A stretch of DNA of 34,807 nt. Source: a virus. Its lineage: Duplodnaviria > Heunggongvirae > Uroviricota > Caudoviricetes. Location of the stretch: the IMG/VR virus record IMGVR_UViG_2526164649_000022; one strand, written 5' to 3'. Of the stretch, positions 12,686 to 34,536 are shown piece by piece. The position numbers and the translations under genes were made by a program. Position 1 is the stretch's first letter. Every line of letters begins with the position of its first letter. A model generated the notes under the pieces. The model had not been told where the DNA came from. It made no database searches and saw only the letters and a list, made by a program, of their open reading frames with translations.

Positions 12686-12752
12686 GATTTCCGTGCTGAG
12701 ACGGCTACCTGAGGTGTACTGGCAATAGCGGACACTACCATTTGTTCTTTTT

Positions 12753-13571
12753 TTAAGCAGCCATCTGATGATATTTTTCCCTGAAGGCTGCCGGGGAGAT
12801 ATTCCCCAGACGAGAGTGACGACGCTGACGATTGTAGAAAATCTCAATGTATTCCCGTATTACTGAGATGGCTTCATCCCGGTTATTAAAACGATAGTGG
12901 CTCAGGCTCTCATTTTTCAGCGTTCCCCAGAAGCTTTCCATCGGAGCGTTGTCGTAACAGTTACCTTTACGCGACATTGATGTTTTCAGACCAGACTGCT
13001 CCTGTATGACCCGGTAATCGTATGCGCAGTACTGTGAACCTCGATCAGAGTGGTGGATTAGCCCGGCAGGTGGGCGCTGGCTCCTGAGCGCCATAAACAG
13101 GGCTTTACCTGTCAGCTCTTTTGTCATGCGCTCTCCCATGGCGTAGCCGACAATTTCACACGTATAAACATCTTTGATGCCAGCGAGGTACAACCATCCC
13201 TCCTGTGTGGCAACATACGTCAGGTCCGCCACCCAGACCTGATTTGGTGCTGTAGGAGCGAACGTCTGGTTCAGCAGATTTGGCGCAACTGGCAGATTGT
13301 GGTTCGGGTTCGTAGTCGCTCTGAACTTGCGTTTCTGCTTACAGCGTAGCCTTAGCTCCTTACGAAGACGTGCCAGTCGGTCACGACCAACGATGATGCC
13401 ATTCTCTGCCAGCTCCGTCTGGAGCCGCCGGGTTCCATATGTTTCGCGAGTGCGGATATGTGCCACCTTAATCTCCAGTTTTAGCCGCTCATCACTTTGT
13501 TTTCTGTCTGAGGGTTCATGCTGTACCCAGTTGTAATAACCGCTCCTGGATACACCAAATACCTGACACAT
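12753..13571 (-). CDS. IS600 transposase OrfB (DDE integrase domain)
   Basis: 272-aa ORF with IS3-family integrase features, downstream of OrfA. Confidence 0.9.
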   Translation of the reverse strand: MCQVFGVSRSGYYNWVQHEPSDRKQSDERLKLEIKVAHIRTRETYGTRRLQTELAENGIIVGRDRLARLRKELRLRCKQKRKFRATTNPNHNLPVAPNLLNQTFAPTAPNQVWVADLTYVATQEGWLYLAGIKDVYTCEIVGYAMGERMTKELTGKALFMALRSQRPPAGLIHHSDRGSQYCAYDYRVIQEQSGLKTSMSRKGNCYDNAPMESFWGTLKNESLSHYRFNNRDEAISVIREYIEIFYNRQRRHSRLGNISPAAFREKYHQMAA

Positions 13572-13606
13572 CGCTTCAATGGGAAATTGTTGTCGCCATT
13601 GTTCGA

Positions 13607-13909
13607 TTAACGCGTATTTTTCAGCGACTCCTGTGCAAAATACGCTGTTGCTTTTTTTAATATATCTCGCTCAAGGCGAGCTTCATTTAACGCCTTACGC
13701 AGTTGCAGAATTTCAGATTCCAGTTCAGCCACCGTGCGGGAACCAGGAGTACCGAGCCCTTTTCTGGCGGCGGTAACCCATTGTCCTAAAGTGCCTTCAG
13801 GAAGGGATAATCGGGAAGCGCCTTCACTGATCGAAAGTTGATTTTCAAGAACCGTTCTGACAGCTTCGGCTTTGAACTCTTTAGAGTAACGTTGGGTTTT
13901 TCTGCTCAT
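13607..13909 (-). CDS. IS600 transposase OrfA (HTH/leucine zipper)
   Basis: 100-aa ORF MSRKTQRYSKEFKAEAVRTVLENQLSISEGA..., typical IS3-family OrfA. Confidence 0.9.
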   Translation of the reverse strand: MSRKTQRYSKEFKAEAVRTVLENQLSISEGASRLSLPEGTLGQWVTAARKGLGTPGSRTVAELESEILQLRKALNEARLERDILKKATAYFAQESLKNTR

Positions 13910-13965
13910 TATTAGCTCCTTCTGATGCCATTCTATTTCAGGAAGGAGTGTCCGTTAAACTCAGG

Positions 13966-14181
13966 CTACCTCAACCTGTTGCCATACTGTTTCTCCAGTT
14001 GCTTTATCAGGCGGAACAACTGCCGCAGGGGCAGTTGTTCCAGGTACTGAATGCTGAATCGCGAAGACAGGTTAACCAGCAGGTTCATCAGTGCCGCCGC
14101 CAGCGGCATCAGTTCGCCCCCGCGTTGCCACCTCCTCAAGCATGTCATCCAGCACAGCCGCTTTCGTGCTGATAAGCTCAA
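13966..14181 (-). CDS. Frameshift extension frame of the tail assembly chaperone (G-T-like); last two codons and stop lie in the IS600 terminus
   Basis: ORF overlapping the 3' end of the chaperone gene in another frame, with a G5 run (C5 on plus strand, 14117-14121) at the overlap. Confidence 0.45.
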   Translation of the reverse strand: MSLSARKRLCWMTCLRRWQRGGELMPLAAALMNLLVNLSSRFSIQYLEQLPLRQLFRLIKQLEKQYGNRLR

Positions 14182-14467
14182 GGTCTGCCGGGTGGAGCAT
14201 TCGCAGCTGTTTCATGTCCAGCGGGCCGGGGATATTACCGATTGACGCAACCTGACGGCGCATCATCTCCAGTCCCATCAGCACCTCAGAACAGTAGGCC
14301 ACCGCCTTTCCGTTCCCGCCCATGACGACGCGTTCTGCGGCCAGTTGCGCATCAATCACATCACTGGCGGTCAGTTCGCGCAGTTTCACGGTTTTATGCA
14401 GGGTTTCATCTGCCGTGCCTTTGCCGGTCAGAAGCCCGTGTTTCAGTTCAAATTCCATTGCGGCCAT
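14072..14467 (-). CDS. Tail assembly chaperone (Mu gp41-like)
   Basis: 131-aa ORF between tail tube and tape measure, the conserved chaperone position. Confidence 0.6.
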   Translation of the reverse strand: MAAMEFELKHGLLTGKGTADETLHKTVKLRELTASDVIDAQLAAERVVMGGNGKAVAYCSEVLMGLEMMRRQVASIGNIPGPLDMKQLRMLHPADLELISTKAAVLDDMLEEVATRGRTDAAGGGTDEPAG

Positions 14468-14468
14468 G

Positions 14469-14825
14469 TCACACCTTCACGCATTTTTCACCGATAAAGT
14501 TGGCACTGATGGTGCCGGAATCCTCGTCCAGCTCTGCCGGGTTATCCGTGGCGGAACCCGTCATCATGTAGTTCAGGCCGTTGTCGCCGTAGAACATCAC
14601 CGTGACATCTTCCCAGCTGCTGATTTCAATCACGTCCATATCCGCTGCCGCCGCAATGGTTACCTTGATGGACGGCGAGGCCATCTTGCTGGAGATACCC
14701 CAGACCTTGCCGCCGCCCATATGCTGGGTGCGGCTGAAGCCGCCCGGATTCAGCGTGGATTTCCCCTCGGTTTTAATTTCGCGGCCATTCACGCGAATGG
14801 TCGCCATGCCAAGAATTTTTGCCAT
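14469..14825 (-). CDS. Tail tube protein (Mu M-like)
   Basis: 118-aa ORF immediately downstream of the sheath gene. Confidence 0.65.
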   Translation of the reverse strand: MAKILGMATIRVNGREIKTEGKSTLNPGGFSRTQHMGGGKVWGISSKMASPSIKVTIAAAADMDVIEISSWEDVTVMFYGDNGLNYMMTGSATDNPAELDEDSGTISANFIGEKCVKV

Positions 14826-14834
14826 GTGGCCCCC

Positions 14835-16310
14835 TTAAAGCTTGAACTGAATCAGGCCTGCCAGCACACGCAACTGGTTCACCAGATTCGGGTGGCAGAT
14901 AAAGTTCAGGCGGTTTTTATCGCTGCTGTCGCGTGTCACCTGAAGCGTGTCCCTGTAATCGCTGAAGTTTTCCACAAGGCCCGCCGGGAGAAGTTCGGTC
15001 TGGCAGATATCCAGCAGCTCTGCAGTGCACAGCTTCGGCGTCATCACCGGCTGCCCCGCATCCAGCGAGTCCAGCACGTCATCATCCGCCAGCTTGTGGC
15101 GCGGATAACGGTTCGAGAAACGGTTTTTAATGATGTAACGGATACGGCCCAGCGTGGCGGGTGACTGCACATCAAGATACGACACATCCGCATCACCGTA
15201 CTGGTTAACCCAGTACATGGTGATTTCACGCTCGATGCAGACGTTATCCCCGGCGTCCACCATGTGCGTGGCAATGCCGTCATGCAGCAGCAGGTTACGT
15301 TCCGGCATATCCCAGCGAACATTACGCGCAGGCGGCAGAATGCCGGTCAGGACCAGCGTCTGAAGCGGACGCGCCGGGTCAATGGCAAGGTGATACGCTG
15401 CCGTTGCGCCGTATGACGCGGCCCACATCCACGCCGGATGCGGCGACAGGTTGGTGCCGATGCAGCTAATCAGCCAGTCATTGCGGGTTTCACCAAACGT
15501 GCCGGTTTCCCCGTGCGTGCCACGAAACGCCGTCCACAGCTGCGCTTCCATCATTTTGAGCGGCCCCCAGCGGTTCAGCAGTTCATCACGCAGGGTGTTC
15601 AGGCTTTTCGTGTCGGTGAACGGGGCGATGATATCGGTAAACCACTCCGGGCCGATGGCCGCAACGGCGTCTGCCATTTCCGGTGTCCCGGTGCCGCCGG
15701 TAAACGCGGTTGCGGTCACCTTCACACCTGCCGGGAAGGCTTCACCGGTGTGGTAGTTCAGGCGAACGTCGGCACCGTTGCCGGTGACGCCGTGCCAGTT
15801 CACGGTCAGCTCCACGGTATCCGTGGCATCATCCTTCACCGCAGCGGCCACCTGCGTGGCAGGCTTTTTCGTCACCGCATCAGCAATGGCTTTTGCAATG
15901 TTTTCCTTCGTATCCCCGGCGCTCACGCTCACCTGAACGGACACACCGTTAATCAGCAGTGCCACCGTTCCGGCTTCGGTCGCTGTACCCAGCACGGTCA
16001 GCGTGGCTTTTGCGGCAGCGCCTTCAGGAGCGGCAACCGGCATCGCCCAAGTTTCCGTGTACGTGTTGGCACGACGCAGCATTTTGAGCATTTCAGCCAG
16101 CATCGACCCTTTGCCATAAAGCTGGTCTGCCTGGCTGTCACTGGTGATACGGGTCAGTGACAGGGCGTCTGCGCTGCCGGACGATACCGCATGGCCCATG
16201 ACCAGAATTTTTCGGCTTTGCGCGGATGCACCCTCCAGTGCCTGTGAATTGTCGATATCGATCCAGACAAGCGGGACGCGGATATCATCAGGAATGGAAC
16301 CCAGCGACAT
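14835..16310 (-). CDS. Tail sheath protein (Mu L-like)
   Basis: 491-aa ORF, size and position of contractile tail sheath. Confidence 0.8.
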   Translation of the reverse strand: MSLGSIPDDIRVPLVWIDIDNSQALEGASAQSRKILVMGHAVSSGSADALSLTRITSDSQADQLYGKGSMLAEMLKMLRRANTYTETWAMPVAAPEGAAAKATLTVLGTATEAGTVALLINGVSVQVSVSAGDTKENIAKAIADAVTKKPATQVAAAVKDDATDTVELTVNWHGVTGNGADVRLNYHTGEAFPAGVKVTATAFTGGTGTPEMADAVAAIGPEWFTDIIAPFTDTKSLNTLRDELLNRWGPLKMMEAQLWTAFRGTHGETGTFGETRNDWLISCIGTNLSPHPAWMWAASYGATAAYHLAIDPARPLQTLVLTGILPPARNVRWDMPERNLLLHDGIATHMVDAGDNVCIEREITMYWVNQYGDADVSYLDVQSPATLGRIRYIIKNRFSNRYPRHKLADDDVLDSLDAGQPVMTPKLCTAELLDICQTELLPAGLVENFSDYRDTLQVTRDSSDKNRLNFICHPNLVNQLRVLAGLIQFKL

Positions 16311-16510
16311 TATTTTTTCCCTCTGGTTTTGTTGTTATTTTTCGGAAGTGTGGTTATTTCCACATCTCCCTCGGCTTCACGGCGCAGCCAGTAAGCGCAG
16401 ACGTTGAGACGTTCCCCTTCCGGGGATAAATGTGCGCCATCCGGTTTACGGACACGGACGTTTTCCCGCGCTGGCTTAATCAGTTTCTGTTCCATCGTCA
16501 CCCCGTACAT
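16310..16510 (-). CDS. Small phage protein (Mu gp38-like)
   Basis: 66-aa ORF coupled to the sheath gene start. Confidence 0.45.
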   Translation of the reverse strand: MYGVTMEQKLIKPARENVRVRKPDGAHLSPEGERLNVCAYWLRREAEGDVEITTLPKNNNKTRGKK

Positions 16511-17087
16511 GGATCACGTCGTTAATTTCAGTGTGTTCGCCGCTGCGCAGTGTCGCCCCGAGGCGCAGGAAATCCGGGAGCGCGGCGAGATCAATCTCTT
16601 CATCCAGCCGGAATTCCTGCTCCCACGTCACCGCCCACATGGTGACACCCAGCCCGTCGAGGCTGACGGAGTAAATGTTGTCTGCCCGCACATCAGCAGC
16701 CATGCGTTCAGCCCCCATGCCCGCTGTGGCATCCGACGACAGCAGGCGTTTGATCACCTTTCCGGCCAGCACTTCACAGCGCACGTCGCGGGAATACCCC
16801 CACGAATCCGTCGCCATGATGTAAGCCACCCAGGTGACCAGACCGGACAGCCCGCCGCGCGGGTTGATATCCCGGACACGCAGGGCCGCGACACGGATAC
16901 AGCCGGTGCGACCGGACAGATAGCGTTTCACTTCATCCGGGCTGTTGAACTGGCCGATGTGACGCTCCACCACGTCAGCCCGGTCAGGGGTGTCCCCCTG
17001 AAGGGCCGTCTGCAGCCAGGCCACAATGTGCTCTGCGGCCGCAACGGTGCTCCCCGGTGTGCGCAGTTCAGGGCGTTGTTCTGTCAT
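16476..17087 (-). CDS. Virion/tail-completion protein (Mu gp37-like)
   Basis: 203-aa ORF in the head-tail joining block; gene-order inference. Confidence 0.5.
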   Translation of the reverse strand: MTEQRPELRTPGSTVAAAEHIVAWLQTALQGDTPDRADVVERHIGQFNSPDEVKRYLSGRTGCIRVAALRVRDINPRGGLSGLVTWVAYIMATDSWGYSRDVRCEVLAGKVIKRLLSSDATAGMGAERMAADVRADNIYSVSLDGLGVTMWAVTWEQEFRLDEEIDLAALPDFLRLGATLRSGEHTEINDVIHVRGDDGTETD

Positions 17088-17629
17088 GGCAGAACCTCCT
17101 TCCAGAAATGACTGATAACCTGTTGCAGCTCCTGCTGGCTGGCAGAAGACAGCCCCAGAAATTCACGTTGCGGAATGTTCATCATGCGGTGATGTGCGCC
17201 GACGGTCTGCCAGACCGGATATTTCAGCGCCCGCCCGAAACACTGCGAGATAAGCCGTTTGTGGGCGCTGACCGGCACGCTGCCGGAAAAGCCGTCATTC
17301 ATGATGCGGGCATAATCCAGCGGTGAACCGATACGCACCACGCGGTTTTCCACGATGTACTGGATACTCTCCAGCAGATGGCCTTCACCGCGCAGCAGAC
17401 TCTGGTTGCCGTGGCGGGTCTTTTTGTACCCGTCAGACCAGTCCGGCCAGCGTTCGCCACCCGGACTGGTTTTCTCATCGATGATGCGGCGGCGGGTCTG
17501 TGATTCCACCACCGCACCGATGCTTTCCAGCAGCTCTGACTGCAATGAACCCTCTGCCAGCTTTTCAACGGCGCGGCGGATATCCTCCAGACGCTGGTCA
17601 CCGCTGACCTGTACAGAAATCCCCATCAC
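17084..17629 (-). CDS. Virion morphogenesis protein (Mu gp36-like)
   Basis: 181-aa ORF with overlapping start/stop in the head-tail joining block. Confidence 0.5.
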   Translation of the reverse strand: MMGISVQVSGDQRLEDIRRAVEKLAEGSLQSELLESIGAVVESQTRRRIIDEKTSPGGERWPDWSDGYKKTRHGNQSLLRGEGHLLESIQYIVENRVVRIGSPLDYARIMNDGFSGSVPVSAHKRLISQCFGRALKYPVWQTVGAHHRMMNIPQREFLGLSSASQQELQQVISHFWKEVLP

Positions 17630-18063
17630 AGCACCCCTTTCAGGTTGTTACGGGTGAACAGCCGGGCATTGGCACCCACCACAATAATTTTCCCGTTGTC
17701 GGTTTCTGCCGGGGTGGCATACGTCGGCAGGCCCAGGTCACGGGTGCCGTTCGCCATTTCACGCAGGGTTTTAATGGCGTCGTCGTAGCGTTTCTGGATC
17801 AGCTCCGTGATTTGATTGTCACGCTCTGATAACCAGTAAAACGCCAGCGATACCGCCACGCGTTGCAGCGGGCGCGGGATTTCCGTCACCCCCAGCGGCA
17901 GCTGGTAGCGGCGGGACAGAAACGAATCAATTTCCGCTTCCGCATCACTGATGGCCTGACGGATTTTGTCTTCATCCAGCCCGTTGGTTTCCCGGTTAAT
18001 CGCCATGTTCCAGACAAGATTGCCGTCCGCGCGTAACAGATCTTCCTGCGTGATGTATCCCAT
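17626..18063 (-). CDS. Head-tail joining protein (Mu gp35/36-like)
   Basis: 145-aa ORF with overlapping stop/start codons on both sides. Confidence 0.5.
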   Translation of the reverse strand: MGYITQEDLLRADGNLVWNMAINRETNGLDEDKIRQAISDAEAEIDSFLSRRYQLPLGVTEIPRPLQRVAVSLAFYWLSERDNQITELIQKRYDDAIKTLREMANGTRDLGLPTYATPAETDNGKIIVVGANARLFTRNNLKGVL

Positions 18064-18374
18064 CAGCCTTTCTCCGCTTCCCGGACAATCAGATTCGGCT
18101 CTGCCATCAGGCGGGTGGCAACCGCAGCGCTCACCGCCACATCCTCACCGATATGTGACCAGAAACGGCCACAGCGCCAGAACCCGTTTTCAGACACGGC
18201 CCTGACGTTCAGCCGGACAGGGGCGTCACCCTGTACAGCAACCGGGTCTTCAGCCGGACGTGGTTCATTCGCCTGACCGTCAGCCACAATAACGTCTGCC
18301 AGCGGTGCCGGGTTTTCCTGTGCAGCGCTGTTCTTTGCGGCTTTCGCGCCTTTGGTTTCTGCTTTTTCACTCAT
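18063..18374 (-). CDS. Hypothetical phage protein downstream of major capsid gene
   Basis: 103-aa ORF with Ala/Pro-rich N-terminus; preceded by a structured intergenic region. Confidence 0.45.
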   Translation of the reverse strand: MSEKAETKGAKAAKNSAAQENPAPLADVIVADGQANEPRPAEDPVAVQGDAPVRLNVRAVSENGFWRCGRFWSHIGEDVAVSAAVATRLMAEPNLIVREAEKG

Positions 18375-18445
18375 GACTCTGCCTTTTAAAAGGCAGTTAA
18401 AAGGGCATTCACAGCACCTTTTAACTGCGGTTTACGGATGACGGG

Positions 18446-19351
18446 TTATGCCGGGGGGGTGATGTACGGGCTGTCCACGATCTCCACATCCTTGTACCAG
18501 ATGTTGGAATCGCCGCCGTTAACCAGCATGGCGTCAATAATGAGCTTCGCGTCCGCACGGTTTTTCGGCCCCACCACAAGGGTGGTCGGGCGGATGCCCA
18601 GCGGCTCACCGTTGGTGCCCTTCATGCCCCGCAGCAACTCATTGGCTTTTTTGTAGTTCTCCACCGTCAGTGCTGCACGGGAACCGACGGCGGTCTGCCA
18701 GAAGCCGAAGCCCGCATTACAGCGACCGTCCACGCCGTACAGGAACTCGTGGTTCTTGAAGGTGTGCTCGCTGTTCAGATCGTCCAGGGCTTCAAACTTA
18801 AAGGCGCGTCGCGTCTGCCAGATGATGGGTTTCAGCACCTGCGACTCATCAATCAGGAACCACGGTTCGCCCTTGTCTGATGCCGGGGTGCCGACAACGT
18901 TGCTGTACGTACCGTCACCCAGCGGGTGGTCTTCATCAAAGAAGTTCTGGCCGTCAAAGCACAGGGTGTTAAAACCGGCACACAACAGGGCGTAACACAG
19001 CTTGTCCGGGAACACAGCAGTCATACGGCCATAGCGTTCGGCGGTAATGCTGTACTGACCAATCTGGTCATCTTCAATGTGTTCACGCTTAACGCGAATG
19101 GAACTTTCCCAGAGTTTGTTGGTGATGGTGTAACCATAACCGTCCAGCGTTGCCAGCTGACGCTCACCGACCCATTCTTTGATGTCCGGTAAATCTTTCA
19201 TCCAGCCGTAAGTGTTGGAGGCGGACGAACTCGGCACCTCAGAAGCAATACGATTCCACTGCGGTTCGACACCACTCAGTCCACGGGTAAAGGCGGCGCT
19301 CAGGCAGGTGGTCAGTGCATGAAGGATTTCAGAACTGATAGTCTGTGACAT
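18446..19351 (-). CDS. Major capsid protein (Mu T-like)
   Basis: 301-aa ORF directly downstream of the protease/scaffold gene. Confidence 0.8.
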   Translation of the reverse strand: MSQTISSEILHALTTCLSAAFTRGLSGVEPQWNRIASEVPSSSASNTYGWMKDLPDIKEWVGERQLATLDGYGYTITNKLWESSIRVKREHIEDDQIGQYSITAERYGRMTAVFPDKLCYALLCAGFNTLCFDGQNFFDEDHPLGDGTYSNVVGTPASDKGEPWFLIDESQVLKPIIWQTRRAFKFEALDDLNSEHTFKNHEFLYGVDGRCNAGFGFWQTAVGSRAALTVENYKKANELLRGMKGTNGEPLGIRPTTLVVGPKNRADAKLIIDAMLVNGGDSNIWYKDVEIVDSPYITPPA

Positions 19352-19358
19352 GTGTTAC

Positions 19359-20315
19359 TTACTCCTGTTTCGGTTTAGCGGCGAGGAACTCTTCCCCGGT
19401 AATACCCATGCTGCGACACATCGCCAGTTCGGCATCGGTCAGTGTCTGCGCGGGTTTATCCTTGCCCTGGCTGGGCTTGTCGTTGTTAACCAGCGGCTGT
19501 GCACCTTTGGTGTACTCCGCAAACTGTTTGCGGCCTTCTTCCGTGCGGCAGGTGGCAAGGAACATGTCACGGTTTGCCGGGGCGACTTTTCCGGCCCCGA
19601 TGGCCGCATCCACAAGCGCCTCGGCTTCCTTCTCTTCCAGTTGCTGAAGGCGTTTTTCTGCGGTTTCGGCACGGTTCAGTGCCAGATTGTGGGTTTCCAC
19701 CGGCACAAACTTCGTCAGGTCAGGTGTCTGTGCGCGGTTCAGCGCCACCTGTTCGTTCTCCTGAAGTTGTTTAATGGCGGCCACGGTATCGTCCACCGTG
19801 GCGGATTCAGCCAGCCCAAGCAGGCCGGTGATTTGCACAGGTACTGTCATCGGGTTTTTCTCCGTATTCAGTGCAGGAAAATCCAGGTTAGGTTTGTTGG
19901 TCAGCCCGACGCTGGACAGGCGCGTCACCGCACCGTCTGCGTCATGGAAAAACGCCGGGCTGTAATAGCGGTAGCGGCGCTCGCTCAGCATCCACCGGGC
20001 GGACTCACTCCAGACAACACGCCCTTCAATGGTGCCGCTGTCCGTCACCCGCAGTGCTTCCACCCAGCCATACGCCGGAGCCTCTTCACCCCGCGGGCCT
20101 TTAATTTCGGTGGCATGTTCAATGTCCACCGGAATGTTGATGTCGGACGAACGGGCAACCACCTCATGTGGATTGCGGTTCATCCACGTCCGGCCATCGC
20201 GCCCGGTGAACTCACCCGCAGGAACGAGTTCAAGCCATTCCGGCAGTTGAGCGGGTGTCAGCTCAGGGATGGGTTCTGGCAGGGAAAAACACAGCGCCAG
20301 CAGTTCCGGTTGCAT
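19359..20315 (-). CDS. Head maturation protease / scaffold (Mu I/Z-like)
   Basis: 318-aa ORF with coiled-coil C-terminal half, immediately upstream of capsid gene. Confidence 0.7.
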   Translation of the reverse strand: MQPELLALCFSLPEPIPELTPAQLPEWLELVPAGEFTGRDGRTWMNRNPHEVVARSSDINIPVDIEHATEIKGPRGEEAPAYGWVEALRVTDSGTIEGRVVWSESARWMLSERRYRYYSPAFFHDADGAVTRLSSVGLTNKPNLDFPALNTEKNPMTVPVQITGLLGLAESATVDDTVAAIKQLQENEQVALNRAQTPDLTKFVPVETHNLALNRAETAEKRLQQLEEKEAEALVDAAIGAGKVAPANRDMFLATCRTEEGRKQFAEYTKGAQPLVNNDKPSQGKDKPAQTLTDAELAMCRSMGITGEEFLAAKPKQE

Positions 20316-20364
20316 GTCAGTCTCCGTCGTCTGGGGTTACCGACGGTCAGTATGCGGAAGGCAG

Positions 20365-20390
20365 AAAAAAAGCCGGATTTACCGGCTTCA
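20365..20390 (-). terminator. Putative intrinsic terminator between F-like and I-like genes
   Basis: Minus strand reads AAGCCGG-TAAAT-CCGGCTT followed by a T run; identical 26-bp element recurs at 27916-27941. Confidence 0.5.
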
Positions 20391-20529
20391 CTGAAAACGG
20401 GGAAATACCCCCTTCAAAACCCCTTCAAAAACGCCACGGACGCTTCAAAAAAGCCAGGGTGTACATTCATGCCATCAGAATAAAAAACGCGTTTCTGATG
20501 CGTTTCAGGGGCATTTACGGCGGGGAGGG

Positions 20530-21294
20530 TTATTCACTGTTAAAACGGGCCTGTCTGGCCGCCAGCTGGCGCGCCAGCTCCTGCTCACGGTTTATGCCGG
20601 GATTGTAGTTCCAGCCCGGATCAATCCCTTCCGGCACCTCTTCCTCTTCGCCCGTACGTTTGTTCACCCAGCGGACAGTTCTGATTTCCGGCGCTTCGGT
20701 GTGAATGGTGCCCTGTGCCGCCAGTTGCGCATACTCACCACGGCTGACCTGACGGATGGTGCATTTGCAGCCCCAGCCGTTAGGGGCAAAATGCGTCTGC
20801 CAGAACGGATGCTCTACCGGCAGACACAGACGCGCCCATTTCACATGCTCCACCCGGTGCTCACGGGATGGCCCCAGCTCGTACATCAGATACGGCATGG
20901 CCTGCTTTGTCCGCTGAATGCGTTCCCACTGGCCCGCCGCGCGGGCGGTGCGCATGTTGGTATCAAAAATCGTGCGGAGGCGGCGGTCGCTGCCCAGTTG
21001 CACGGTGCGGGTTTCACCCGTCAGCGGATCATCCATCTCCTGTACGCCCCACCATCCGCGTTTTATCAGCAACGGTTGCAGCATCTCCTGGAACTCGCTG
21101 AACGTCTGCCCGCTTTGCAGGGCGTCTTCCACAAGGGCTTTCACATCCGACAACAAATCCAGTTGCAGCATTCTGGCCACGGGGAAGCTGTACCGGTGCT
21201 CTTCCCGCCACACATCCCGGTAATCAAAACCGGGACGCAGCTTCTTCGCCTTCAGCCACGCCAGCGCCTCTTTCGGGATGAGGGTTTCACGCAT
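20530..21294 (-). CDS. Head morphogenesis protein (Mu F-like)
   Basis: Downstream of portal; likely start MRETLIPKEALAWLK at 21294 rather than 21351, which would overlap the portal gene by 65 nt. Confidence 0.65.
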   Translation of the reverse strand: MRETLIPKEALAWLKAKKLRPGFDYRDVWREEHRYSFPVARMLQLDLLSDVKALVEDALQSGQTFSEFQEMLQPLLIKRGWWGVQEMDDPLTGETRTVQLGSDRRLRTIFDTNMRTARAAGQWERIQRTKQAMPYLMYELGPSREHRVEHVKWARLCLPVEHPFWQTHFAPNGWGCKCTIRQVSRGEYAQLAAQGTIHTEAPEIRTVRWVNKRTGEEEEVPEGIDPGWNYNPGINREQELARQLAARQARFNSE

Positions 21295-25245: not shown

Positions 25246-25247
25246 GT

Positions 25248-26057: not shown

Positions 26058-26662
26058 TTCGGCCCCGCTGATATTTTGTGACAGCTCGATTTGCTGTAAC
26101 GGGCAAAGCCGTCAAGGGTTCTTACCCCGAGATAGCCCAGCGCCGGGGTAAACAACATCAGCGTGATATCCCAGTCCGGTGACGGCATATGCAGCGTGAT
26201 ACCGTTCGCACCGGCAACCGCACCGGCAATCTGGCCACAGGAGAGCAACAGCACATAGGCCAGACTGCTGTAACAGGACAGACGGGCCAGCAACGGGCGC
26301 GTCTGGCGCACATAGCTGTCCGTGGCGTTGTCACCGTTGCGGATGGTTTCCTGTTGTTCGTGGTGAGCGGCCTGCTGGTCAGCCAGCACCAGCTTCTGCC
26401 GCTCCACCTCCAGCTGTTGCAGCTGGACTTTCAGGGTTTCCAGCTGCACCAGTTGCTCCGGTGACAGCATCACCAGTTTTTGTTCCAGAATGCGTTGCTG
26501 TTCAGCCACCGGCAGGCTTTCCCGGACGCTTTCCACCATACCGGCCACCGAGTCAGCGGCGGCAGATGTGCTGCCACCAAACCAGCGCCCGACGGAACGA
26601 ATCAGCCCCGGCCCGGCTTTCAGCAGAACGGAGGCGATGCCTGAAAGGGTTAACGGGTCCAT
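26054..26662 (-). CDS. Hypothetical membrane protein with coiled coil and C-terminal transmembrane segments
   Basis: 202-aa ORF with Gln/Leu-rich heptad region and hydrophobic C-terminal stretch. Confidence 0.4.
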   Translation of the reverse strand: MDPLTLSGIASVLLKAGPGLIRSVGRWFGGSTSAAADSVAGMVESVRESLPVAEQQRILEQKLVMLSPEQLVQLETLKVQLQQLEVERQKLVLADQQAAHHEQQETIRNGDNATDSYVRQTRPLLARLSCYSSLAYVLLLSCGQIAGAVAGANGITLHMPSPDWDITLMLFTPALGYLGVRTLDGFARYSKSSCHKISAGPK

Positions 26663-27060
26663 GAATCCCCCTTATGAAAACGGCGCTGATGTTTATAAAG
26701 TGCCGCACAAAAGATACCGCCCAGCCAGAACGCCAGCTGATAAGGCTCCTTCAGATAAAGAAGGCCGAATGTCAGCATGAAAAAACCAACGGCCCAGACC
26801 ACCCATGACCACACGACAATTCGAAGGGAGGCGGCCCGGAAACGCCTTTTGGGTTGCAGGCGATAAGGTACGTTGCCCAGCTGGAAACTGTGAATCAGGC
26901 AGAGTGTCGCGCCGTATGCCAGCACCATGACCGCAAACGCCCGCCATCCGGCAAAACAGCTCGCCAGAAAAAGTACTGCCGACAGCCCCAGAAACGACCA
27001 CTGGCACAACATAAAGCGGGAGTAAATAACGCGAACAAAAAGACTATTCATTCTGTGCAT
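26650..27060 (-). CDS. Multi-pass membrane protein (holin-like candidate)
   Basis: At least three hydrophobic segments; internal Met start (MHRMNSLF...) at 27060 preferred over the track start at 27156. Confidence 0.4.
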   Translation of the reverse strand: MHRMNSLFVRVIYSRFMLCQWSFLGLSAVLFLASCFAGWRAFAVMVLAYGATLCLIHSFQLGNVPYRLQPKRRFRAASLRIVVWSWVVWAVGFFMLTFGLLYLKEPYQLAFWLGGIFCAALYKHQRRFHKGDSWTR

Positions 27061-27271
27061 TGAGTTTTTCCTTGTACTTCTGGCACTGCCAGAAAATGTC
27101 CCGTGTATCCACGGTGTTCCAGCCACGCATGTAGTAGCTGGCGTGTGTGCCGTCATGGCCGGTATAGTCCAGCGGTTTCGGAGGCGGACCTCCGGCCATA
27201 CGGTGCAGAACCTCCTGACGCAGGCGGTCGCGTCGCCCGGCTTTCAGTGAGGCATCCCAGCCTTTGCCCAT
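27044..27271 (-). CDS. Hypothetical small protein downstream of endolysin
   Basis: 75-aa ORF starting 2 nt after the endolysin stop; no recognisable domain. Confidence 0.3.
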   Translation of the reverse strand: MGKGWDASLKAGRRDRLRQEVLHRMAGGPPPKPLDYTGHDGTHASYYMRGWNTVDTRDIFWQCQKYKEKLNAQNE

Positions 27272-27272
27272 A

Positions 27273-27860
27273 TCACCCCCGCGTGGCGGACGGCGCGTTG
27301 TCGATGATTTCCAGACAGGCGTCGGTCAGTTCTTCCATGCGGTTAAACCATCCGTTCAGGTATTTGCCCTGGGCGGGTTTTGATTTGATGATGTCGGCAT
27401 AAAAGCGGGAACGACGGACAATACAGCGGGTCAGCAACCAGTCCGGGTTAGACAGGTTCACGGCCCTGCGGGTACGCGGGCCGATGATGCCGTCAGCATC
27501 CACATCAGCGGCTTCCTGCAAAATTCTGATGGCTTTTTTAACGCCATGCTGAACCGCCGCATCGAACACAAACAGCGCTACACCATCAGGCCACTGCTCA
27601 CACCCGGCTGGCAGCCAGTAATCGCGCCAGTAAATCTGCGCAGCCTGTTCGCGGGTCAAATCTTTGATGCGGGTATCCGGTTTGCCGTCTCCGTTGACGT
27701 CGGTTTTGCCGTCAATCACACCGTCGCGGCGGTCAGAAATGCCGTATCTGGTTTCGCCGCCACGGTCAGTGGGGTCATTGACATAGACGCCTTCGATATC
27801 GGGACGCAGAATAAAATTCAGCGCATACTCAAAGGCCGGGGAGAATTTTTGATTTTCCAT
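27273..27860 (-). CDS. Endolysin (glycoside hydrolase family 108-like with peptidoglycan-binding domain)
   Basis: 195-aa ORF, first gene after the Mor-family activator and terminator; family call from recalled motif architecture. Confidence 0.65.
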   Translation of the reverse strand: MENQKFSPAFEYALNFILRPDIEGVYVNDPTDRGGETRYGISDRRDGVIDGKTDVNGDGKPDTRIKDLTREQAAQIYWRDYWLPAGCEQWPDGVALFVFDAAVQHGVKKAIRILQEAADVDADGIIGPRTRRAVNLSNPDWLLTRCIVRRSRFYADIIKSKPAQGKYLNGWFNRMEELTDACLEIIDNAPSATRG

Positions 27861-27915
27861 AAAAGCACCTGTGAAGCAGATTTAAACGTGGTCTGCTTCA
27901 TGGTGCCGGAGGCAT

Positions 27916-27941
27916 AAAAAAAGCCGGATTTACCGGCTTCA
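27916..27941 (-). terminator. Putative intrinsic terminator after the Mor-family gene (end of early/middle operon), upstream of endolysin
   Basis: 7-bp stem AAGCCGG/CCGGCTT, 5-nt loop, T7 tract on the minus strand; identical to the element at 20365-20390. Confidence 0.5.
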
Positions 27942-27945
27942 TTGA

Positions 27946-28395
27946 TTAAGGACGTCGTGGCGGACGACGAACGGGGTGAGGCAGGTTCGGGGAGTGGTAA
28001 AACAAATCCGGCTGGTATTTATTACACTCCAGACGCCGCATCCGCTTGATGGCCTTGTAGACGGTTTTATACGTCACCCCGTAACGCTGAACCAGTTCAG
28101 GAATATTATGGCCGTTAAAATCACGCCAGATACGCATATCCCGGACAAGATTCTCCAGAATATTCCCCCTCGGAACATAAACCTGCATCCCGCCGATATA
28201 GCGACAAATCGCCACAACCAGCTCAAGGGAATGGGCAGGGTCTGCGCCAATCCGGGCCAGCTCTTTACGCAGCAGTGCGTTCAGTTCAGAAAGTAACGCC
28301 GGATAAGCCGTGTTTTCCTGGTAATCGTTAAGGTATTCCAGAACGCTGTCGTCCCGGAAGTCTTCGAATAAATCCTGCTCTTTCATCTGTTTCAT
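27946..28395 (-). CDS. mor: Mor/C-family transcriptional activator of middle/late genes
   Basis: 149-aa ORF directly downstream of GemA-like gene with C-terminal helix-turn-helix region (ELVQRYGVTYKTVYKAIKRMRR), as in Mu Mor/C. Confidence 0.7.
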   Translation of the reverse strand: MKQMKEQDLFEDFRDDSVLEYLNDYQENTAYPALLSELNALLRKELARIGADPAHSLELVVAICRYIGGMQVYVPRGNILENLVRDMRIWRDFNGHNIPELVQRYGVTYKTVYKAIKRMRRLECNKYQPDLFYHSPNLPHPVRRPPRRP

Positions 28396-28943
28396 ACAGC
28401 AATTCTCCCGCTGTTTCGTGCGCGGGCATACGCACTGGTCAGTGCATCATAGCCGCGCAGCTCCTGCCCGGTTTCGCTCACAGGTAAAGGCACACCATGT
28501 CGGGCAAAGGCTTCACGGATGCAGCGCATATGCCACTGTTTGAGCGTTTCGAGCACAACCTGCAACGATTCCCCGTGACACCAGGCCAGCGTGGAAACAC
28601 CCTGACCGCCATTACGTCTGGCTGTCAGGCGTTCAACGTATTTGTCCAGCGCAGCGTCGCTGATATCGGAGACGAAACCATCAAGGAACATCTGCTGCCA
28701 GATTTTATAAATCTTCTCGCGCGGTGTGACATGCCCCTTAAAGCGACGGCGGGGATGTTTTTTCTGCTTCTTAAAACCGCGCTCTTTCATGGCATCGAGC
28801 ACACGTTCCAGTTGTGCAACGGAAAGCTCGCGGCAACTGGTTTTGCCCGTGCACTGCACCAGAAAGGTGCGGTAAGTGTCATCGTCGAGTTGCAGGTCAC
28901 GACGGGCAACATGAATTAATTTAATCAGGGATGTGCAGCTCAT
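28392..28943 (-). CDS. gemA: GemA-like protein (Mu gp16-like)
   Basis: 183-aa ORF immediately upstream of the Mor-family gene, matching Mu gemA-mor order. Confidence 0.55.
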   Translation of the reverse strand: MSCTSLIKLIHVARRDLQLDDDTYRTFLVQCTGKTSCRELSVAQLERVLDAMKERGFKKQKKHPRRRFKGHVTPREKIYKIWQQMFLDGFVSDISDAALDKYVERLTARRNGGQGVSTLAWCHGESLQVVLETLKQWHMRCIREAFARHGVPLPVSETGQELRGYDALTSAYARARNSGRIAV

Positions 28944-29081
28944 TATGTCCCCCCGGATTTAAAATTAATTCGGTGTTGAATAGCTCTTTACTCATTCGAT
29001 GTAGCACATCGAGGGCGGCAACTGCCGCTACTTTATCCTGGCTGGCAATGATTTTTCGTAATTCCTCAATAATCCAGGCTG
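28921..29081 (-). pseudogene. 3' fragment of an early-region gene truncated by IS1
   Basis: The reading frame ending at 28921 continues upstream only into IS1 sequence; the phage-derived part is about 53 codons. Confidence 0.35.
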
Positions 29082-29136
29082 GGTAATGCTGCCAACTTAC
29101 TGATTTAGTGTATGATGGTGATTTTAAGGTGCTTGC

Positions 29137-29412
29137 GTGGCTTCCATTTCCATCAGATGTCCTTCCTGCTCCGCTACTGAAGGCGTGGTGCGTAACGGCA
29201 AAAGCACTGCCGGACATCAGCGCTATCTCTGCTCTCATTGCCGTAAAACATGGCAACTACAGTTCACTTACACCGCCTCTCAGCCCGGTACGCACCAGAA
29301 AATCATTGATATGGCCATGAATGGCGTCGGATGTCGCGCCAGTGCACGCATTATGGGCGTTGGCCTCAACACGGTTTTACGTCACTTAAAAAACTCAGGC
29401 CGCAGTCGGTAA
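29137..29412 (+). CDS. insA: IS1 InsA
   Basis: 91-aa [42 protein letters not shown]... matches recalled InsA. Confidence 0.9.
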
Positions 29413-29834
29413 CCTCGCGCATACAACCGGGCAGTGATGTGATTGTCTGCGCTGAAATGGACGAACATTGGGGCTACGTCGGTGCTAAATCACGTCAGCG
29501 CTGGCTGTTTTACGCGTATGACAGGATACGGAGGACGGTTGTGGCGCACGTCTTCGGTGAACGCACTCTGGCCACACTGGAGCGTCTTCTGAGCCTGCTG
29601 TCGGCCTTTGAGGTCGTGGTATGGATGACGGATGGCTGGCCGCTGTATGAATCACGCCTGAAGGGAAAGCTGCACGTTATCAGCAAGCGTTACACTCAGC
29701 GCATTGAGCGACATAATCTGAATCTGAGACAACATCTGGCAAGGCTGGGACGGAAGTCACTGTCGTTCTCAAAATCGGTGGAGCTGCATGACAAGGTCAT
29801 CGGGCATTATCTGAACATAAAACACTATCAGTAA
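29331..29834 (+). CDS. insB: IS1 InsB reading frame (expressed as InsAB' by -1 frameshift)
   Basis: ORF overlapping the insA 3' end and ending ...[15 protein letters not shown], as in IS1. Confidence 0.85.
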
Positions 29835-29880
29835 GTTGGAGTCATTACCCGGATTTTGACGTTCATTGTCAGCGTTCCTT

Positions 29881-30159: not shown

Positions 30160-30176
30160 AAATAAATAAGCCGTTA

Positions 30177-30404: not shown

Positions 30405-30419
30405 GGTTTATGTCCTTTA

Positions 30420-31370: not shown

Positions 31371-31445
31371 AGTATTTCCTCGGTTATTTCAAATCAGCTT
31401 TGTTTCCTTTATTTAACAGTCCGTTCCCGCGGACTGTTTTTTTAT

Positions 31446-33273
31446 TCAGGCCAGCGGATCATCTTCTTCCTGCATGGCAAAAAGTTTTTGCATCCCCAGC
31501 CGGAAATCGCGTTCAAATTCTTCGTCATGCTCTTCTTCATATTCCGGTTGCTGAACTGCCACCACATTACCAACCGGGCGATAAACATTACTCAGCCAGG
31601 GTTCAGCCTGTTTGTGTTCCAGAATCTGAATACCTTCATCTTCAGCATCACGAATTTTTTCCTCAGCGCGTTTGCGCATTCCTTTAATACGCTGCTGTTG
31701 TTTGTGATATTCAGCACTGACAGCAAAGGCTGCGCGTTTATTGCCGTTCCATATCGCCTCACAGATAAAGCTGCCGTCCTTGCGACGTACCGTAATTCGC
31801 TCGGCGTCATGAATGTCATAACTGATAAGCACTTTGCGACCGTGTTCGTCACGCAACTCCGGCGCGTAGTAAATATTGTTCAGCCACTGAATTTCGCAGC
31901 GTCTTACCGGTCGTTCCACCATTGGGCGGAACATGTCGCGCAGCTCAAGATCACTCAGCCACTCAATTTCGGTGTCTTCTTCTGCCAGGCGTTTTTTCTG
32001 AACTCTGTCGGGCTGTAATGCCGTCCGTTCGGTTTCATCGGCAGCTCAGAATGCGGGCGGTTGTTGTACCATTCCACGCCTTCACGAATAGCCTCAATAA
32101 GCTCCGCCCACGATGGCAGCTCGCGCATTGCCGCTTTCTGGCGGTCGTTCAGAGGCTTGTCCTGTTGCAGGGCGTTAAACGCTGAACGCAGATCACGGTT
32201 AAGTACACGCAACGATTCCCGGTCAGCACCCTTGCCAAAATAGGTGCGATACCTCCTGGCTATACGCATCGGCAGTGTCCGGTTCAGGCGTTCAATAATG
32301 CCGCGTCCCTGTGGATTACCGGCAATACCGGTAGGGTGTTTAATCCCCAGGCGTGGCAGAATACCCACGACCTCTTTGTCCAGCATGTCAGCCGTTTCAC
32401 CGGAACCGTTATCCGAGTAATACAGGAACGGTTTTCCGTGGTTGCGAATGCCGTGCTGTATCGCACCGGCAACGGCGAACACGTTTTCGGCAAGGTCAAG
32501 ACTCCAGCCAACAACAAACCGTGTTCCACCATCGATCACAAACGTGACTTCCGGTGAGAATGGACGCCCGTGGATCGGATGCGCACATTTCAGCTTCATA
32601 CCGTGACCGTCACCAATCCAGACATAATTCACCGGCATAGCTGTCCAGTCGCGGCGGGTGAATCCTTCAAGCTGACGGTATTCACTGCCGGTAACGCGCC
32701 CTTTTTGTTTCACCACTTCCGGCAGTTTTTTCATGGCATACCGGACAACATCATAGGAAGGCATCACCTCCAGCATGTACGGTTCGTCCGCATGGCGACG
32801 CTGCCATTCTGCGACAAAATCCTCGTAGGCTTCTGACATGGGTCTGCCGTTCACCTGGCGATACTGCGCCAGAAATTCAGGCAGCCAGCTGATTTCTTCC
32901 GGTTTTATTTCGTCGCGTTTTCCCGGTGCCAGTAACAGCAGCCGTTCGGCGGCGTTCTGCGACTGGTTGTATTTCAGAACCCACTGGTAAAGTGGATCGC
33001 GGCTGATAGTACGATTAGCGCCACGTTTTGCATTGGCGTTAACTGCGGCCTGTTGCAGGCGCTCCGGCAGCTCACCTTTACGGGCTTTTTCAACAAGAAA
33101 GTTAATGGCTTTCAGTCGCCCGAGGTTACCGGCGCTTTCCAGCTTCAGCACTTCCACCACCAGCGCAGCTCTTGCTTCAGATACCCAGCGCTGGTTTTCG
33201 GTCAGCGCATTCAGGCGTTCTTCCATCAGTTGTGGAGAACCGCGATATGCTTCGATTGCCTGGACAGCGTCAG
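31446..33273 (-). pseudogene. A: Mu A-like DDE transposase, central and C-terminal parts, frameshifted in a T6 run (31992-31997) and severed from its N-terminus by IS600
   Basis: ORFs 31955-33322 and 31446-31934 align to consecutive MuA regions in different frames (...VWIGDGHG... catalytic core; ...NNIYY...DGSFICEA domain III). Confidence 0.8.
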
Positions 33274-33337
33274 TGAGGTAGCCTGAGTTTAACGGACACT
33301 CCTTCCTGAAATAGAATGGCATCAGAAGGAGCTAATA

Positions 33338-33640
33338 ATGAGCAGAAAAACCCAACGTTACTCTAAAGAGTTCAAAGCCGAAGCTGTCAGAACGGTTCTT
33401 GAAAATCAACTTTCGATCAGTGAAGGCGCTTCCCGATTATTCCTTCCTGAAGGCACTTTAGGACAATGGGTTACCGCCGCCAGAAAAGGGCTCGGTACTC
33501 CTGGTTCCCGCACGGTGGCTGAACTGGAATCTGAAATTCTGCAACTGCGTAAGGCGTTAAATGAAGCTCGCCTTGAGCGAGATATATTAAAAAAAGCAAC
33601 AGCGTATTTTGCACAGGAGTCGCTGAAAAATACGCGTTAA
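33338..33640 (+). CDS. IS600 OrfA (copy 2; one Ser-to-Phe difference from copy 1)
   Basis: 100-aa ORF identical to copy 1 except SRLSLPEG to SRLFLPEG. Confidence 0.85.
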   Translation: MSRKTQRYSKEFKAEAVRTVLENQLSISEGASRLFLPEGTLGQWVTAARKGLGTPGSRTVAELESEILQLRKALNEARLERDILKKATAYFAQESLKNTR

Positions 33641-33675
33641 TCGAACAATGGCGACAACAATTTCCCATTGAAGCG

Positions 33676-34493
33676 ATGTGTCAGGTATTTGGTGTATCCA
33701 GGAGCGGTTATTACAACTGGGTACAGCATGAACCCTCAGACAGAAAACAAAGTGATGAGCGGCTAAAACTGGAGATTAAGGTGGCACATATCCGCACTCG
33801 CGAAACATATGGAACCCGGCGGCTCCAGACGGAGCTGGCAGAGAATGGCATCATCGTTGGTCGTGACCGACTGGCACGTCTTCGTAAGGAGCTAAGGCTA
33901 CGCTGTAAGCAGAAACGCAAGTTCAGAGCGACTACGAACCCGAACCACAATCTGCCAGTTGCGCCAAATCTGCTGAACCAGACGTTCGCTCCTACAGCAC
34001 CAAATCAGGTCTGGGTGGCGGACCTGACGTATGTTGCCACACAGGAGGGATGGTTGTACCTCGCTGGCATCAAAGATGTTTATACGTGCGAAATTGTCGG
34101 CTACGCCATGGGAGAGCGCATGACAAAAGAGCTGACAGGTAAAGCCCTGTTTATGGCGCTCAGGAGCCAGCGCCACCTGCCGGGCTAATCCACCACTCTG
34201 ATCGAGGTTCACAGTACTGCGCATACGATTACCGGGTCATACAGGAGCAGTCTGGTCTGAAAACATCAATGTCGCGTAAAGGTAACTGTTACGACAACGC
34301 TCCGATGGAAAGCTTCTGGGGAACGCTGAAAAATGAGAGCCTGAGCCACTATCGTTTTAATAACCGGGATGAAGCCATCTCAGTAATACGGGAATACATT
34401 GAGATTTTCTACAATCGTCAGCGTCGTCACTCTCGTCTGGGGAATATCTCCCCGGCAGCCTTCAGGGAAAAATATCATCAGATGGCTGCTTAA
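33676..34493 (+). pseudogene. IS600 OrfB (copy 2), frameshifted by a 1-bp deletion
   Basis: Copy 1 reads AGCGCCCACCTGCC, copy 2 AGCGCCACCTGCC (about 34171-34176); ORF splits into 33676-34188 and 34269-34493. Confidence 0.8.
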
Positions 34494-34536
34494 AAAAAGA
34501 ACAAATGGTAGTATCCGCTATTGCCAGTACACCTCA

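Follow-up and report, generated by a model that had tools for sequence, protein, structure and literature searches.

IS600, an element of the IS3 family, was first described in Shigella sonnei and is abundant across the Shigella species and EIEC. It is one of the five IS that have expanded in every Shigella species (Hawkey et al., 2020, PMC7373316), and in this genus IS elements are drivers of inversions (Seferbekova et al., 2021, PMC8072062). Cryptic remnants of Mu-like prophages are frequent in S. flexneri as well (Jakhetia and Verma, 2015, PMC4406740). The window analysed here, the whole stretch of 34,807 nucleotides, is 100% identical to AKMV01000036.1 from the draft assembly of Shigella flexneri 2850-71 and holds two inverted copies of IS600 within a Mu-like prophage. 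As described for IS-driven decay in Shigella (PMC7373316, PMC8072062), IS1, IS2 and IS600 are found in one locus with inactivated genes, there are IS-adjacent deletions (in this strain and in a sister strain), and the inverted IS are potential endpoints of an inversion. However, no inversion is seen here and the target is a prophage rather than a metabolic gene. IS2, two IS600, IS1 and a deletion together make up a locus of the sort that IS expansion typically leaves in degraded Shigella genomes.

The prophage and the interrupted genes

The prophage carries MuA and MuB, Mor, head and contractile-tail genes of the Mu type and Com/Mom, and on this gene content it is Mu-like. These genes were called from Pfam annotation of the identical AKMV contig and of sister strains, from a domain scan and from the RefSeq annotation of an uninterrupted relative (L001). 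The set is the same as that of the cryptic SfMu-related prophages of S. flexneri (MuA, MuB, Kil, GemA, Mor, gp27, the Mu portal, F, protease, gpT, sheath, tube, gp41, the DNA circularisation protein, gp44-48, Com and Mom), which are likewise remnants, in serotype 3a and related strains (PMC4406740). At the DNA level, no close full-length relative was found in the phage collection, where the best record accounted for 17% of the 24.8-kb query (window 10000-34807).

Copy 1 is inserted after codon 4 of the tape-measure gene, the intact homologue of which in L001 encodes 618 aa, and copy 2 is inserted within codon 91 of the MuA-like transposase gene (Table 1). Either insertion alone is a knock-out of an essential phage gene. 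An additional frameshift in the MuA gene, caused by a 1-nt shortfall at about 31991, lies in a homopolymer and is seen in this draft assembly only, so it may be a sequencing error. The prophage also has an IS1 with a 3.1-kb deletion of the early region and an IS2 near the tail-fibre genes and, with the MuA and tape-measure genes split, it is not an intact inducible genome. The prophage is defective, disabled by IS600, IS1 and IS2, which is ordinary Shigella genome decay of a kind already known. The DNA between the two IS600 copies had been described as head, packaging, lysis and early genes. This is correct, except that the tail genes had been left out: the segment holds the genes for the tail chaperone, tube and sheath together with those for the head, portal, terminase and lysis, Mor and the early genes, and it further holds IS1 (among the early genes), MuB and most of MuA.

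Table 1. Coordinates of the two IS600 copies, their target duplications and the prophage genes that they interrupt (window positions)
Feature	Position	Strand	Remarks
Tape-measure gene from codon 5 on	10865-12709	-	copy 1 lies between it and the start codon
Target duplication ACC, outer side of copy 1	12707-12709		empty-site comparison
IS600 copy 1	12710-13973	-	1264 bp, apparently intact; IRR at 12710 (outer), IRL at 13973 (inner)
orfB of copy 1	12753-13571	-	272-aa ATG ORF, complete rve/DDE domain
orfA of copy 1	13607-13909	-	100 aa, HTH_Tnp_1
A7G slippery motif of copy 1	13651-13658	-	IS nt 316-323
Target duplication ACC, inner side of copy 1	13974-13976		codon 4 (GGT) of tape-measure gene
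Tape-measure gene, first four codons	13974-13985	-	ATG GCA ACA GGT
Bracketed segment	13974-33273	-	19,300 bp, native orientation
MuA-like transposase gene, remainder	31446-33273	-	T run at about 31991 short by 1 nt
Target duplication CAG, inner side of copy 2	33271-33273		empty-site comparison
IS600 copy 2	33274-34536	+	1263 bp, defective; IRL at 33274 (inner), IRR at 34536 (outer)
orfA of copy 2	33338-33640	+	S35F (T at 33441)
A7G slippery motif of copy 2	33589-33596	+	
orfB fragment 1 of copy 2	33676-34188	+	170 aa; cut short by loss of one C (CCC to CC) at about 34173
orfB fragment 2 of copy 2	34269-34493	+	74 aa, rve_2/rve_3; frame differs from fragment 1
G to A in IRR of copy 2	34513	+	24 nt from right end, within conserved IRL/IRR block CGGACAC
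Target duplication CAG, outer side of copy 2	34537-34539		empty-site comparison
MuA-like transposase gene, 5' part	34537-34807	-	codons 1-90 plus 1 nt; HTH_Tnp_Mu_1

An apparently intact and a decayed copy of IS600

We assigned elements to IS600 at a nucleotide identity of at least 95% over the full length (about 1264 bp), with RefSeq-annotated copies as the reference. Across nt 1-1264 the element shares 99.8% identity with copies carrying the RefSeq annotation 'IS3-like element IS600 family transposase', and its domains are HTH_Tnp_1, HTH_21 and rve. In addition, the features annotated 'IS600 ORF2' on pCP301 match a 71-nt stretch of orfB except for the 1-bp deletion. The terminal inverted repeats are imperfect, with TG...CA ends (TGAGGTAGCC... 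/ ...GTACACCTCA), and IRL and IRR have in common the terminal TGAGGT and an internal CGGACAC block. Both copies have an A7G slippery motif at IS nt 316-323, with the orfB frame open from nt 304. The motif is a predicted site of -1 programmed frameshifting that would yield an OrfAB fusion, and RefSeq annotates a 'programmed frameshift' in IS600 copies that are 99.8% identical.

The repeat finder returned two pairs of inverted arms (12710-13073/34173-34536 and 13073-13973/33274-34174) lying 19,300 nt apart, which are a single 1264/1263-bp repeat divided by a 1-bp indel. The two copies are thus mutually inverted, with 19,300 bp between them and with both IRR ends pointing outward. The original prediction had placed inverted IS600 copies at 12710-13973 (minus) and 33274-34536 (plus), and the global alignment arrives at these same boundaries to the base. 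A repeat of 1.26 kb with 99.7% identity cannot have arisen by chance.

A full pairwise alignment of the copies, which had been proposed as a check, gives this 99.7% identity with only four differences. These are C/T at IS nt 168 (window 13806/33441), which changes OrfA S35 to F in copy 2; T/C at nt 816 (13158/34089), which is synonymous in a Cys codon; the loss of one C at nt 900 in copy 2 (13074/about 34173), which turns CCC into CC and shifts the orfB frame; and G/A at nt 1241 (12733/34513), which alters the right terminal repeat (IRR) of copy 2. Two of the four, the 1-bp deletion in orfB and the Ser-to-Phe change in orfA, had been noticed before, both correctly.

Copy 1 follows the plan of IS600, and its synonymous T816, an allele that is also found in IS600 copies elsewhere, is its sole difference from the majority of five other IS600 copies. 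Its OrfAB of 385 aa is equal in length to the RefSeq-annotated IS600 transposases, and the rve domain extends over profile positions 2-102 of 102, with the motifs D229 (WVAD), D289 (HSDRG) and E325 (NAPMES). With nothing else notable about it, copy 1 looks functional.

Copy 2 is the same element decayed by S35F, the orfB frameshift and the IRR substitution: T168, the deletion at nt 900 and A1241 are all missing from the five other IS600 copies. Its rve domain ends at profile position 64 of 102, so that the DDE domain is incomplete: OrfAB stops at 283 of 385 aa, without D289 and E325, the second D and the E of the triad. Copy 2 would therefore be unable to make an active DDE transposase, in line with the earlier view of it as non-autonomous, and it would be mobile only if another IS600 copy supplied OrfAB. 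That copy 2 would need transposase in trans had been foreseen; what had not been considered is that its altered IRR may also impair it as a substrate for transposition. We infer the inactivity of copy 2, any effects of S35F and of the IRR change, and the activity of copy 1 from the sequence.

Two separate insertions in native order

Among uninterrupted relatives, the nearest that we found (L001) is a prophage of E. coli VL40 with 98-99.8% identity. Each triplet, ACC and CAG, occurs there just once at its site, the flanks are collinear and the gene order is identical. Other loci are empty at site 1, the insertion site of copy 1 (L020, L039, L044 and L048), or at site 2, that of copy 2 (L026 and L025). 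A 3-bp duplication taken alone would match by chance with a probability of 1/64 each, and the empty-site comparison confirms both, as expected of IS600 and the IS3 family: ACC and CAG are each single in the empty sites of L001. Since VL40 has single triplets and the same gene order, the insertions are independent and there has been no net inversion. The claim that each copy has its own duplication, and that the insertions were independent, thus survives the comparison on which it depended, in which the flanks prove to be true duplications. Copy 1's target has 8 nt (AGGTAGCC) in common with IRL nt 3-10, as do 3.5% of shuffles. This likeness is only suggestive, a weak hint that the target may resemble the IS end. 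No likeness to the IS600 ends was found for the copy 2 target in the shuffle comparison.

It could be argued that the duplicate IS, or the variants that distinguish the copies, are an artefact of a collapsed or mis-polished repeat, as the assembly to which the window corresponds is a draft with two homopolymer indels of its own. However, strain 71-2783, which was sequenced independently, repeats both copies, their flanks and all four variants, and its genome was determined with PacBio, Illumina and optical mapping (PMC5754485). Moreover, the insertion at site 2 is common to at least four assemblies, and the three copy 2 mutations recur there in four independent assemblies. We therefore give an artefact practically no credence.

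An inverted IS pair of which one copy is functional and the other defective is also found in the composite transposons Tn5 and Tn10, and the two copies with the DNA that they enclose might have arrived, or be able to move, as a unit. The likeness of an intact and a defective copy in inverted order is superficial, however. Here the outer triplets differ (ACC versus CAG), so that there is no single duplication around the unit, and IRR forms the outer end of each copy. The DNA in between belongs to this site, being collinear with the flanking prophage genes in the uninterrupted relative, and for each IS the two flanks are the halves of one interrupted gene. The chemistry is of the copy-out/paste-in type of IS3, and there is no sign of movement as a unit. 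Given the duplication pattern and the collinearity with L001, we reject a composite-transposon origin as very improbable.

A single event of intramolecular replicative transposition both adds a copy in inverted orientation and flips the DNA between the copies. The second copy could have been made from the first in this way, which would account for inverted copies around a segment. Yet the segment is not inverted relative to L001, direct 3-bp duplications on both sides of each IS are not expected from such an event, and copy 2 has three private mutations that are not in copy 1. Collinearity with L001 and the duplication pattern lead us to dismiss this origin too, as one with very little probability.

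The notion that the IS600 copies are separate simple insertions is supported by these comparisons. Two IS600 elements transposed separately into a Mu-like prophage of S. flexneri, each leaving its own 3-bp duplication; copy 2 has gained three private mutations, while copy 1 stayed apparently functional. We hold with high confidence that the locus consists of two separate IS600 insertions in native order, with copy 1 apparently functional and copy 2 defective, and none of the data examined speaks against it.

Recombination between the copies

The longest perfect block between the copies is 647 bp, so that the pair would be a valid substrate for homologous recombination by RecA, as had been proposed, and has the potential for inversion. 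An inversion would rearrange the late operon, as also proposed, but the functional change would be small, since the genes are hit and the prophage is already dead. That no recombination has occurred in this sequence had been concluded from the duplications, and it holds in the sense that there is no net inversion: the segment is collinear with L001, and the variants specific to each copy, at both ends of the IS, remain with their own flanks.

We searched public assemblies by exact-protein look-ups on the MuA-IS chimeric ORF, the DNA-circularisation protein, MuB and the large terminase. The inverted form was not found in any of the three contiguous assemblies that hold both copies, AKMV01000036.1, CP024470.1 (one locus spanning both) and UGYT01000001.1, all of which have the native order. 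Contigs from short reads are uninformative on this point, because an inversion keeps all four flank-IS junctions and such contigs end there. A switch of the Gin/Hin type is not indicated, as no resolvase or invertase domain was found among the Pfam-annotated genes of the identical and near-identical contigs, and the repeats are full IS elements rather than short crossover sites of the Gin/Hin type.

The relatives bear traces of exchange that consist of a conversion-like patch and an IS1-adjacent deletion, not of an inversion. The deletion is seen in one sister strain, which has lost copy 1 through it. The patch is seen in UGYT01000001.1, where the IS at site 1 shows the copy 2 deletion of 1 bp between ends that are still of the site-1 type (C168 and G1241); of the five differences from the window over 20.9 kb, two lie in this IS, in a stretch of 85 bp. 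The patch looks like gene conversion. It is not the outcome of a double inversion, because site 2 retains the deletion and the exchange is non-reciprocal.

It is possible to go further and suppose that the copies had already recombined in the lineage of the window, by an even number of inversions or by gene conversion. The position of the copy 2 deletion between site-1 end alleles in UGYT01000001.1 and the clustering of differences there are what such exchange would leave behind, and T816, being present in other IS600 copies, is an allele that copy 1 could have copied from elsewhere. The deletion allele is absent from 5,779 IS600-like places in 5,426 complete E. coli genomes and from 1,544 IS600-like places on 729 plasmids of E. 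coli and Shigella, and this absence from about 7,300 places makes independent recurrence unlikely. However, the three copy 2 mutations of the window (nt 168-1241) are all at site 2 with matching duplications, the pattern of copy variants in 71-2783 is exactly that of the window, and a polishing error is possible in the PacBio assembly of UGYT, which has many IS600 copies. Earlier recombination in this lineage therefore appears unlikely to us.

The same orfB deletion is present at at least five loci, site 1 of UGYT among them, and on different IS600 haplotypes. That the position is a mutational hot spot is improbable, as there is no exact match to the deletion allele in the E. coli genomes or plasmids. 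Perhaps the deletion is no private decay mutation of copy 2 but marks a defective IS600 allele that is spreading among the chromosomal copies of Shigella, a suggestion that we make tentatively. Such an allele could spread through ectopic gene conversion, or by transposing with an enzyme provided in trans.

Implications

The locus provides a base-level record of how a Mu-like prophage of S. flexneri was disabled by IS600, IS1 and IS2, with little import beyond annotation. The two verified IS600 insertion sites are usable as lineage markers, with the insertion at site 1 common to at least five assemblies, not counting an 86-bp stub of copy 1 in UGYQ. An inversion at the inverted pair, a potential endpoint, would affect nothing but dead phage genes. 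The conversion-like patch in the sister strain would be a small natural case of non-reciprocal exchange between IS copies. If the deletion allele is indeed spreading, the inverted pair would have exchanged sequence by conversion without crossing over, and the truncated OrfAB, which keeps the DNA-binding part and the first D, could act as an inhibitor of transposition.

Results

A repeat finder reports one long inverted repeat in the window, with the two IS600 copies as its arms and a spacer of 19,300 nt, and in a global alignment with 60-nt flanks the similarity of the arms begins and ends exactly at the copy boundaries (see the table). The alignment gives 1264 bp for copy 1, 1263 bp for copy 2 and four differing positions; the original prediction had correctly named the Ser-to-Phe change and the 1-bp deletion in copy 2, but listed only these two. 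From end to end copy 1 matches many elements at 99.8% identity; RefSeq annotates these as "IS3-like element IS600 family transposase" and marks a programmed frameshift. The ends are TG...CA with imperfect terminal repeats, and a predicted -1 fusion in copy 1 would yield a 385-aa OrfAB with D229, D289 and E325, an anatomy that fits the IS3 family.

Features of the prophage and of IS600 (window or IS600 coordinates, nt)
Feature	Coordinates	Strand	Description
Copy 1 (site 1)	window 12710-13973	minus	after codon 4 (ATG GCA ACA GGT, then IS) of the 618-aa tail tape-measure gene
Copy 2 (site 2)	window 33274-34536	plus	within codon 91 of the 698-aa MuA-like transposase gene
Target of copy 1	window 13974-13985 / 12700-12709		empty site ACAGGTAGCC
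Overlapping ORF	window 13966-14181	minus	other frame than tail chaperone gene
IS1	window about 29082-29849		early region
IS2	window about 970-2300	plus	121-aa and 301-aa ORFs; 99% identical to RefSeq-annotated IS2
42-nt direct repeat	window 20353-20394		one of two copies (see text)
42-nt direct repeat	window 27904-27945		one of two copies (see text)
T runs	window 25544 and 31991		T6; T7 in three sister assemblies
orfA	IS600		100 aa; HTH_Tnp_1
Slippery run A7G	IS600 316-323
orfB	IS600, frame open from 304		HTH_21 and complete rve domain
Difference, copy 1/copy 2	IS600 168		C/T; OrfA S35F in copy 2
Difference, copy 1/copy 2	IS600 816		T/C; synonymous, TGT/TGC Cys
Difference, copy 1/copy 2	IS600 900		C/-; 1-bp deletion in copy 2
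Difference, copy 1/copy 2	IS600 1241		G/A

Both copies were set beside five further IS600 copies taken from E. coli genomes. Among them all, only copy 2 has T168, the deletion at 900 and A1241, and the T816 of copy 1 is the unusual state. Because the deletion trims a CCC run directly upstream of the HSDRG motif, OrfAB of copy 2 stops at residue 283 and lacks both the second D and the E; its Pfam rve match reaches only profile position 64 of 102. OrfA S35 falls inside the HTH_Tnp_1 match; going by helix-turn-helix motifs in general, a bulky Phe at this place would probably be harmful. A1241, 24 nt from the right end, lies within a CGGACAC block common to the left and right terminal inverted repeats (IRL and IRR) and could reduce transposase binding at that end. 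The activities of both copies, like the effects of S35F and A1241, are what we infer from sequence.

The uninterrupted, closely related Mu-like prophage of E. coli VL40 (L001) aligns with the window on either side of both copies, and at each copy the two alignments have the duplicated triplet in common. Read on the plus strand, this triplet is ACC on both sides of copy 1 and CAG on both sides of copy 2, and the empty sites GACGGCT-ACC-TGTTGCC and CAGCGT-CAG-GATTGCG occur once each in L001, bearing out the claim that each copy has its own duplication. L001 and the window agree in gene order and orientation along their whole alignment. Since copy 1 interrupts the tape-measure gene and copy 2 the MuA-like gene, splitting the HTH_Tnp_Mu_1 domain from the remainder of the transposase, both insertions are knock-outs. 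The bracketed 19.3 kb holds the genes for tail chaperone (Gp41_Mu), tube, sheath, head, portal, terminase, lysis, Mor, early functions, MuB and most of MuA; the predicted head, packaging, lysis and early genes are present, and tail chaperone, tube and sheath genes come in addition.

A composite transposon can be discounted as the origin, since the outer flanks differ (ACC versus CAG) and the DNA between the copies is original to this site. Intramolecular replicative transposition can be discounted too: the segment is uninverted, and a separate direct duplication flanks each IS. Nor is an artefact of assembly likely, given that independent assemblies reproduce the structure.

At the target of copy 1, the empty site shares 8 nt (AGGTAGCC) with IRL nt 3-10. 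This match overlaps the duplicated triplet and is equalled in 3.5% of shuffles, so that an inverted repeat-like target is only suggested. The overlapping ORF, which shares the tail chaperone gene's 3' half and reaches the start of the tape-measure gene, may extend the chaperone by a frameshift; IS600 alters its end only from ...GNR* to ...GNRLR*.

Over the compared part of the contig the window is 100.000% identical to AKMV01000036.1 (AKMV), which belongs to assembly GCA_000268085.1, given as S. flexneri 2850-71 in PMC6397287. The serotype 3a strain S. flexneri 71-2783 (CP024470.1; PMC5754485) is identical to window 12855-34388 save two homopolymer indels, a stretch spanning both copies and all four variant positions. 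Site 2 is occupied in AKMV, CP024470, UGYT01000001 (UGYT) and UGYQ01000001 (UGYQ), where every copy carries T168, the deletion at 900 and A1241, and empty in L001 and two other relatives (L025, L026). Site 1 is occupied in AKMV, CP024470, UGYT, J17B (CP100042; PMC10732043) and J1713, with identical flanks in the three compared (AKMV, UGYT, J17B), and empty in L001, L020, L039, L044 and L048.

The window has undergone no net crossover: the duplications of each copy match, and variants 168 and 1241, near the ends, are still beside the flanks they belong to. Native order is found in all three contiguous assemblies holding both copies; the prediction that no recombination has yet occurred stands in this sense. 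The longest perfect block between the copies, 647 bp (nt 169-815), is ample for RecA, and any frequency at which the 19.3-kb segment would invert is one we infer. A crossover inside the IS leaves all four flank-IS junctions unchanged, which makes short reads blind to inversion forms.

The site-1 copy of UGYT (L016 6894-8156) reads C168, C816, deletion at 900 and G1241, that is, the central alleles of copy 2 between site-1 ends. UGYT and the window differ at five positions over 20.9 kb, two of them within 85 bp inside this IS600. A polishing error is an alternative, but the best reading is a non-reciprocal conversion patch, with copy 2 or another deletion-bearing copy as the putative donor. The orfB deletion allele had no exact match in 5,779 IS600-like places in 5,426 complete E. 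coli genomes, nor in 1,544 places on 729 E. coli and Shigella plasmids; it occurs at at least three other chromosomal loci in different IS600 haplotypes (L034, L037 and L032/L033/L038). At L033, L037 and L038 the element lacks matching target duplications, which suggests recombinant copies.

The prophage in the window is damaged further by an IS1, an IS2 and a shortened T run. UGYT carries the same IS1 flanked by an extra 3.1 kb of early-region DNA (gam and neighbours); therefore the window and strain 71-2783 carry an IS1-adjacent deletion, at the left junction of the element. In UGYQ, 16.3 kb corresponding to window 12796-29080, from the IS1 end to inside copy 1, is lost (junction at L018 8289-8291), leaving an 86-bp IRR stub of copy 1 and removing all head, sheath, tube and chaperone genes.

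The IS2, absent from L001, sits between com and a DUF4376 gene, a few codons before the DUF4376 stop, with tail-fibre genes and com/mom adjacent. The 1-nt T-run shortfalls are unique to the window's draft assembly and may be sequencing errors; that at 31991 frameshifts the MuA-like gene. The 42-nt repeats, 90% identical, contain GCCGG-N5-CCGGC; read along the minus (coding) strand, the hairpin is followed by a T7 run and so resembles an intrinsic terminator. The Mor and lysis genes flank one of the repeats and the F and protease genes the other, and they may be terminator and late-promoter junctions of Mu-type late operons. Outside the window (L007 7814-8764, L011 20980-21275), the prophage interrupts a UbiD-family decarboxylase gene downstream of rpoS, separating UbiD_N and UbiD from UbiD_C. 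The VL40 relative lies between a vgr gene and cusS, a difference in host site expected of a transposable phage.

Discussion

Five IS, IS600 among them, have expanded in every Shigella species (PMC7373316), IS elements are behind the high rate at which Shigella genomes rearrange (PMC8072062), and S. flexneri commonly carries cryptic remnants of Mu-like prophages (PMC4406740). The inverted IS600 pair, correctly described in the original prediction, is a known kind of event in genomes already sequenced and annotated. The locus does rearrange, and the routes observed are probable conversion and IS1-adjacent deletion.
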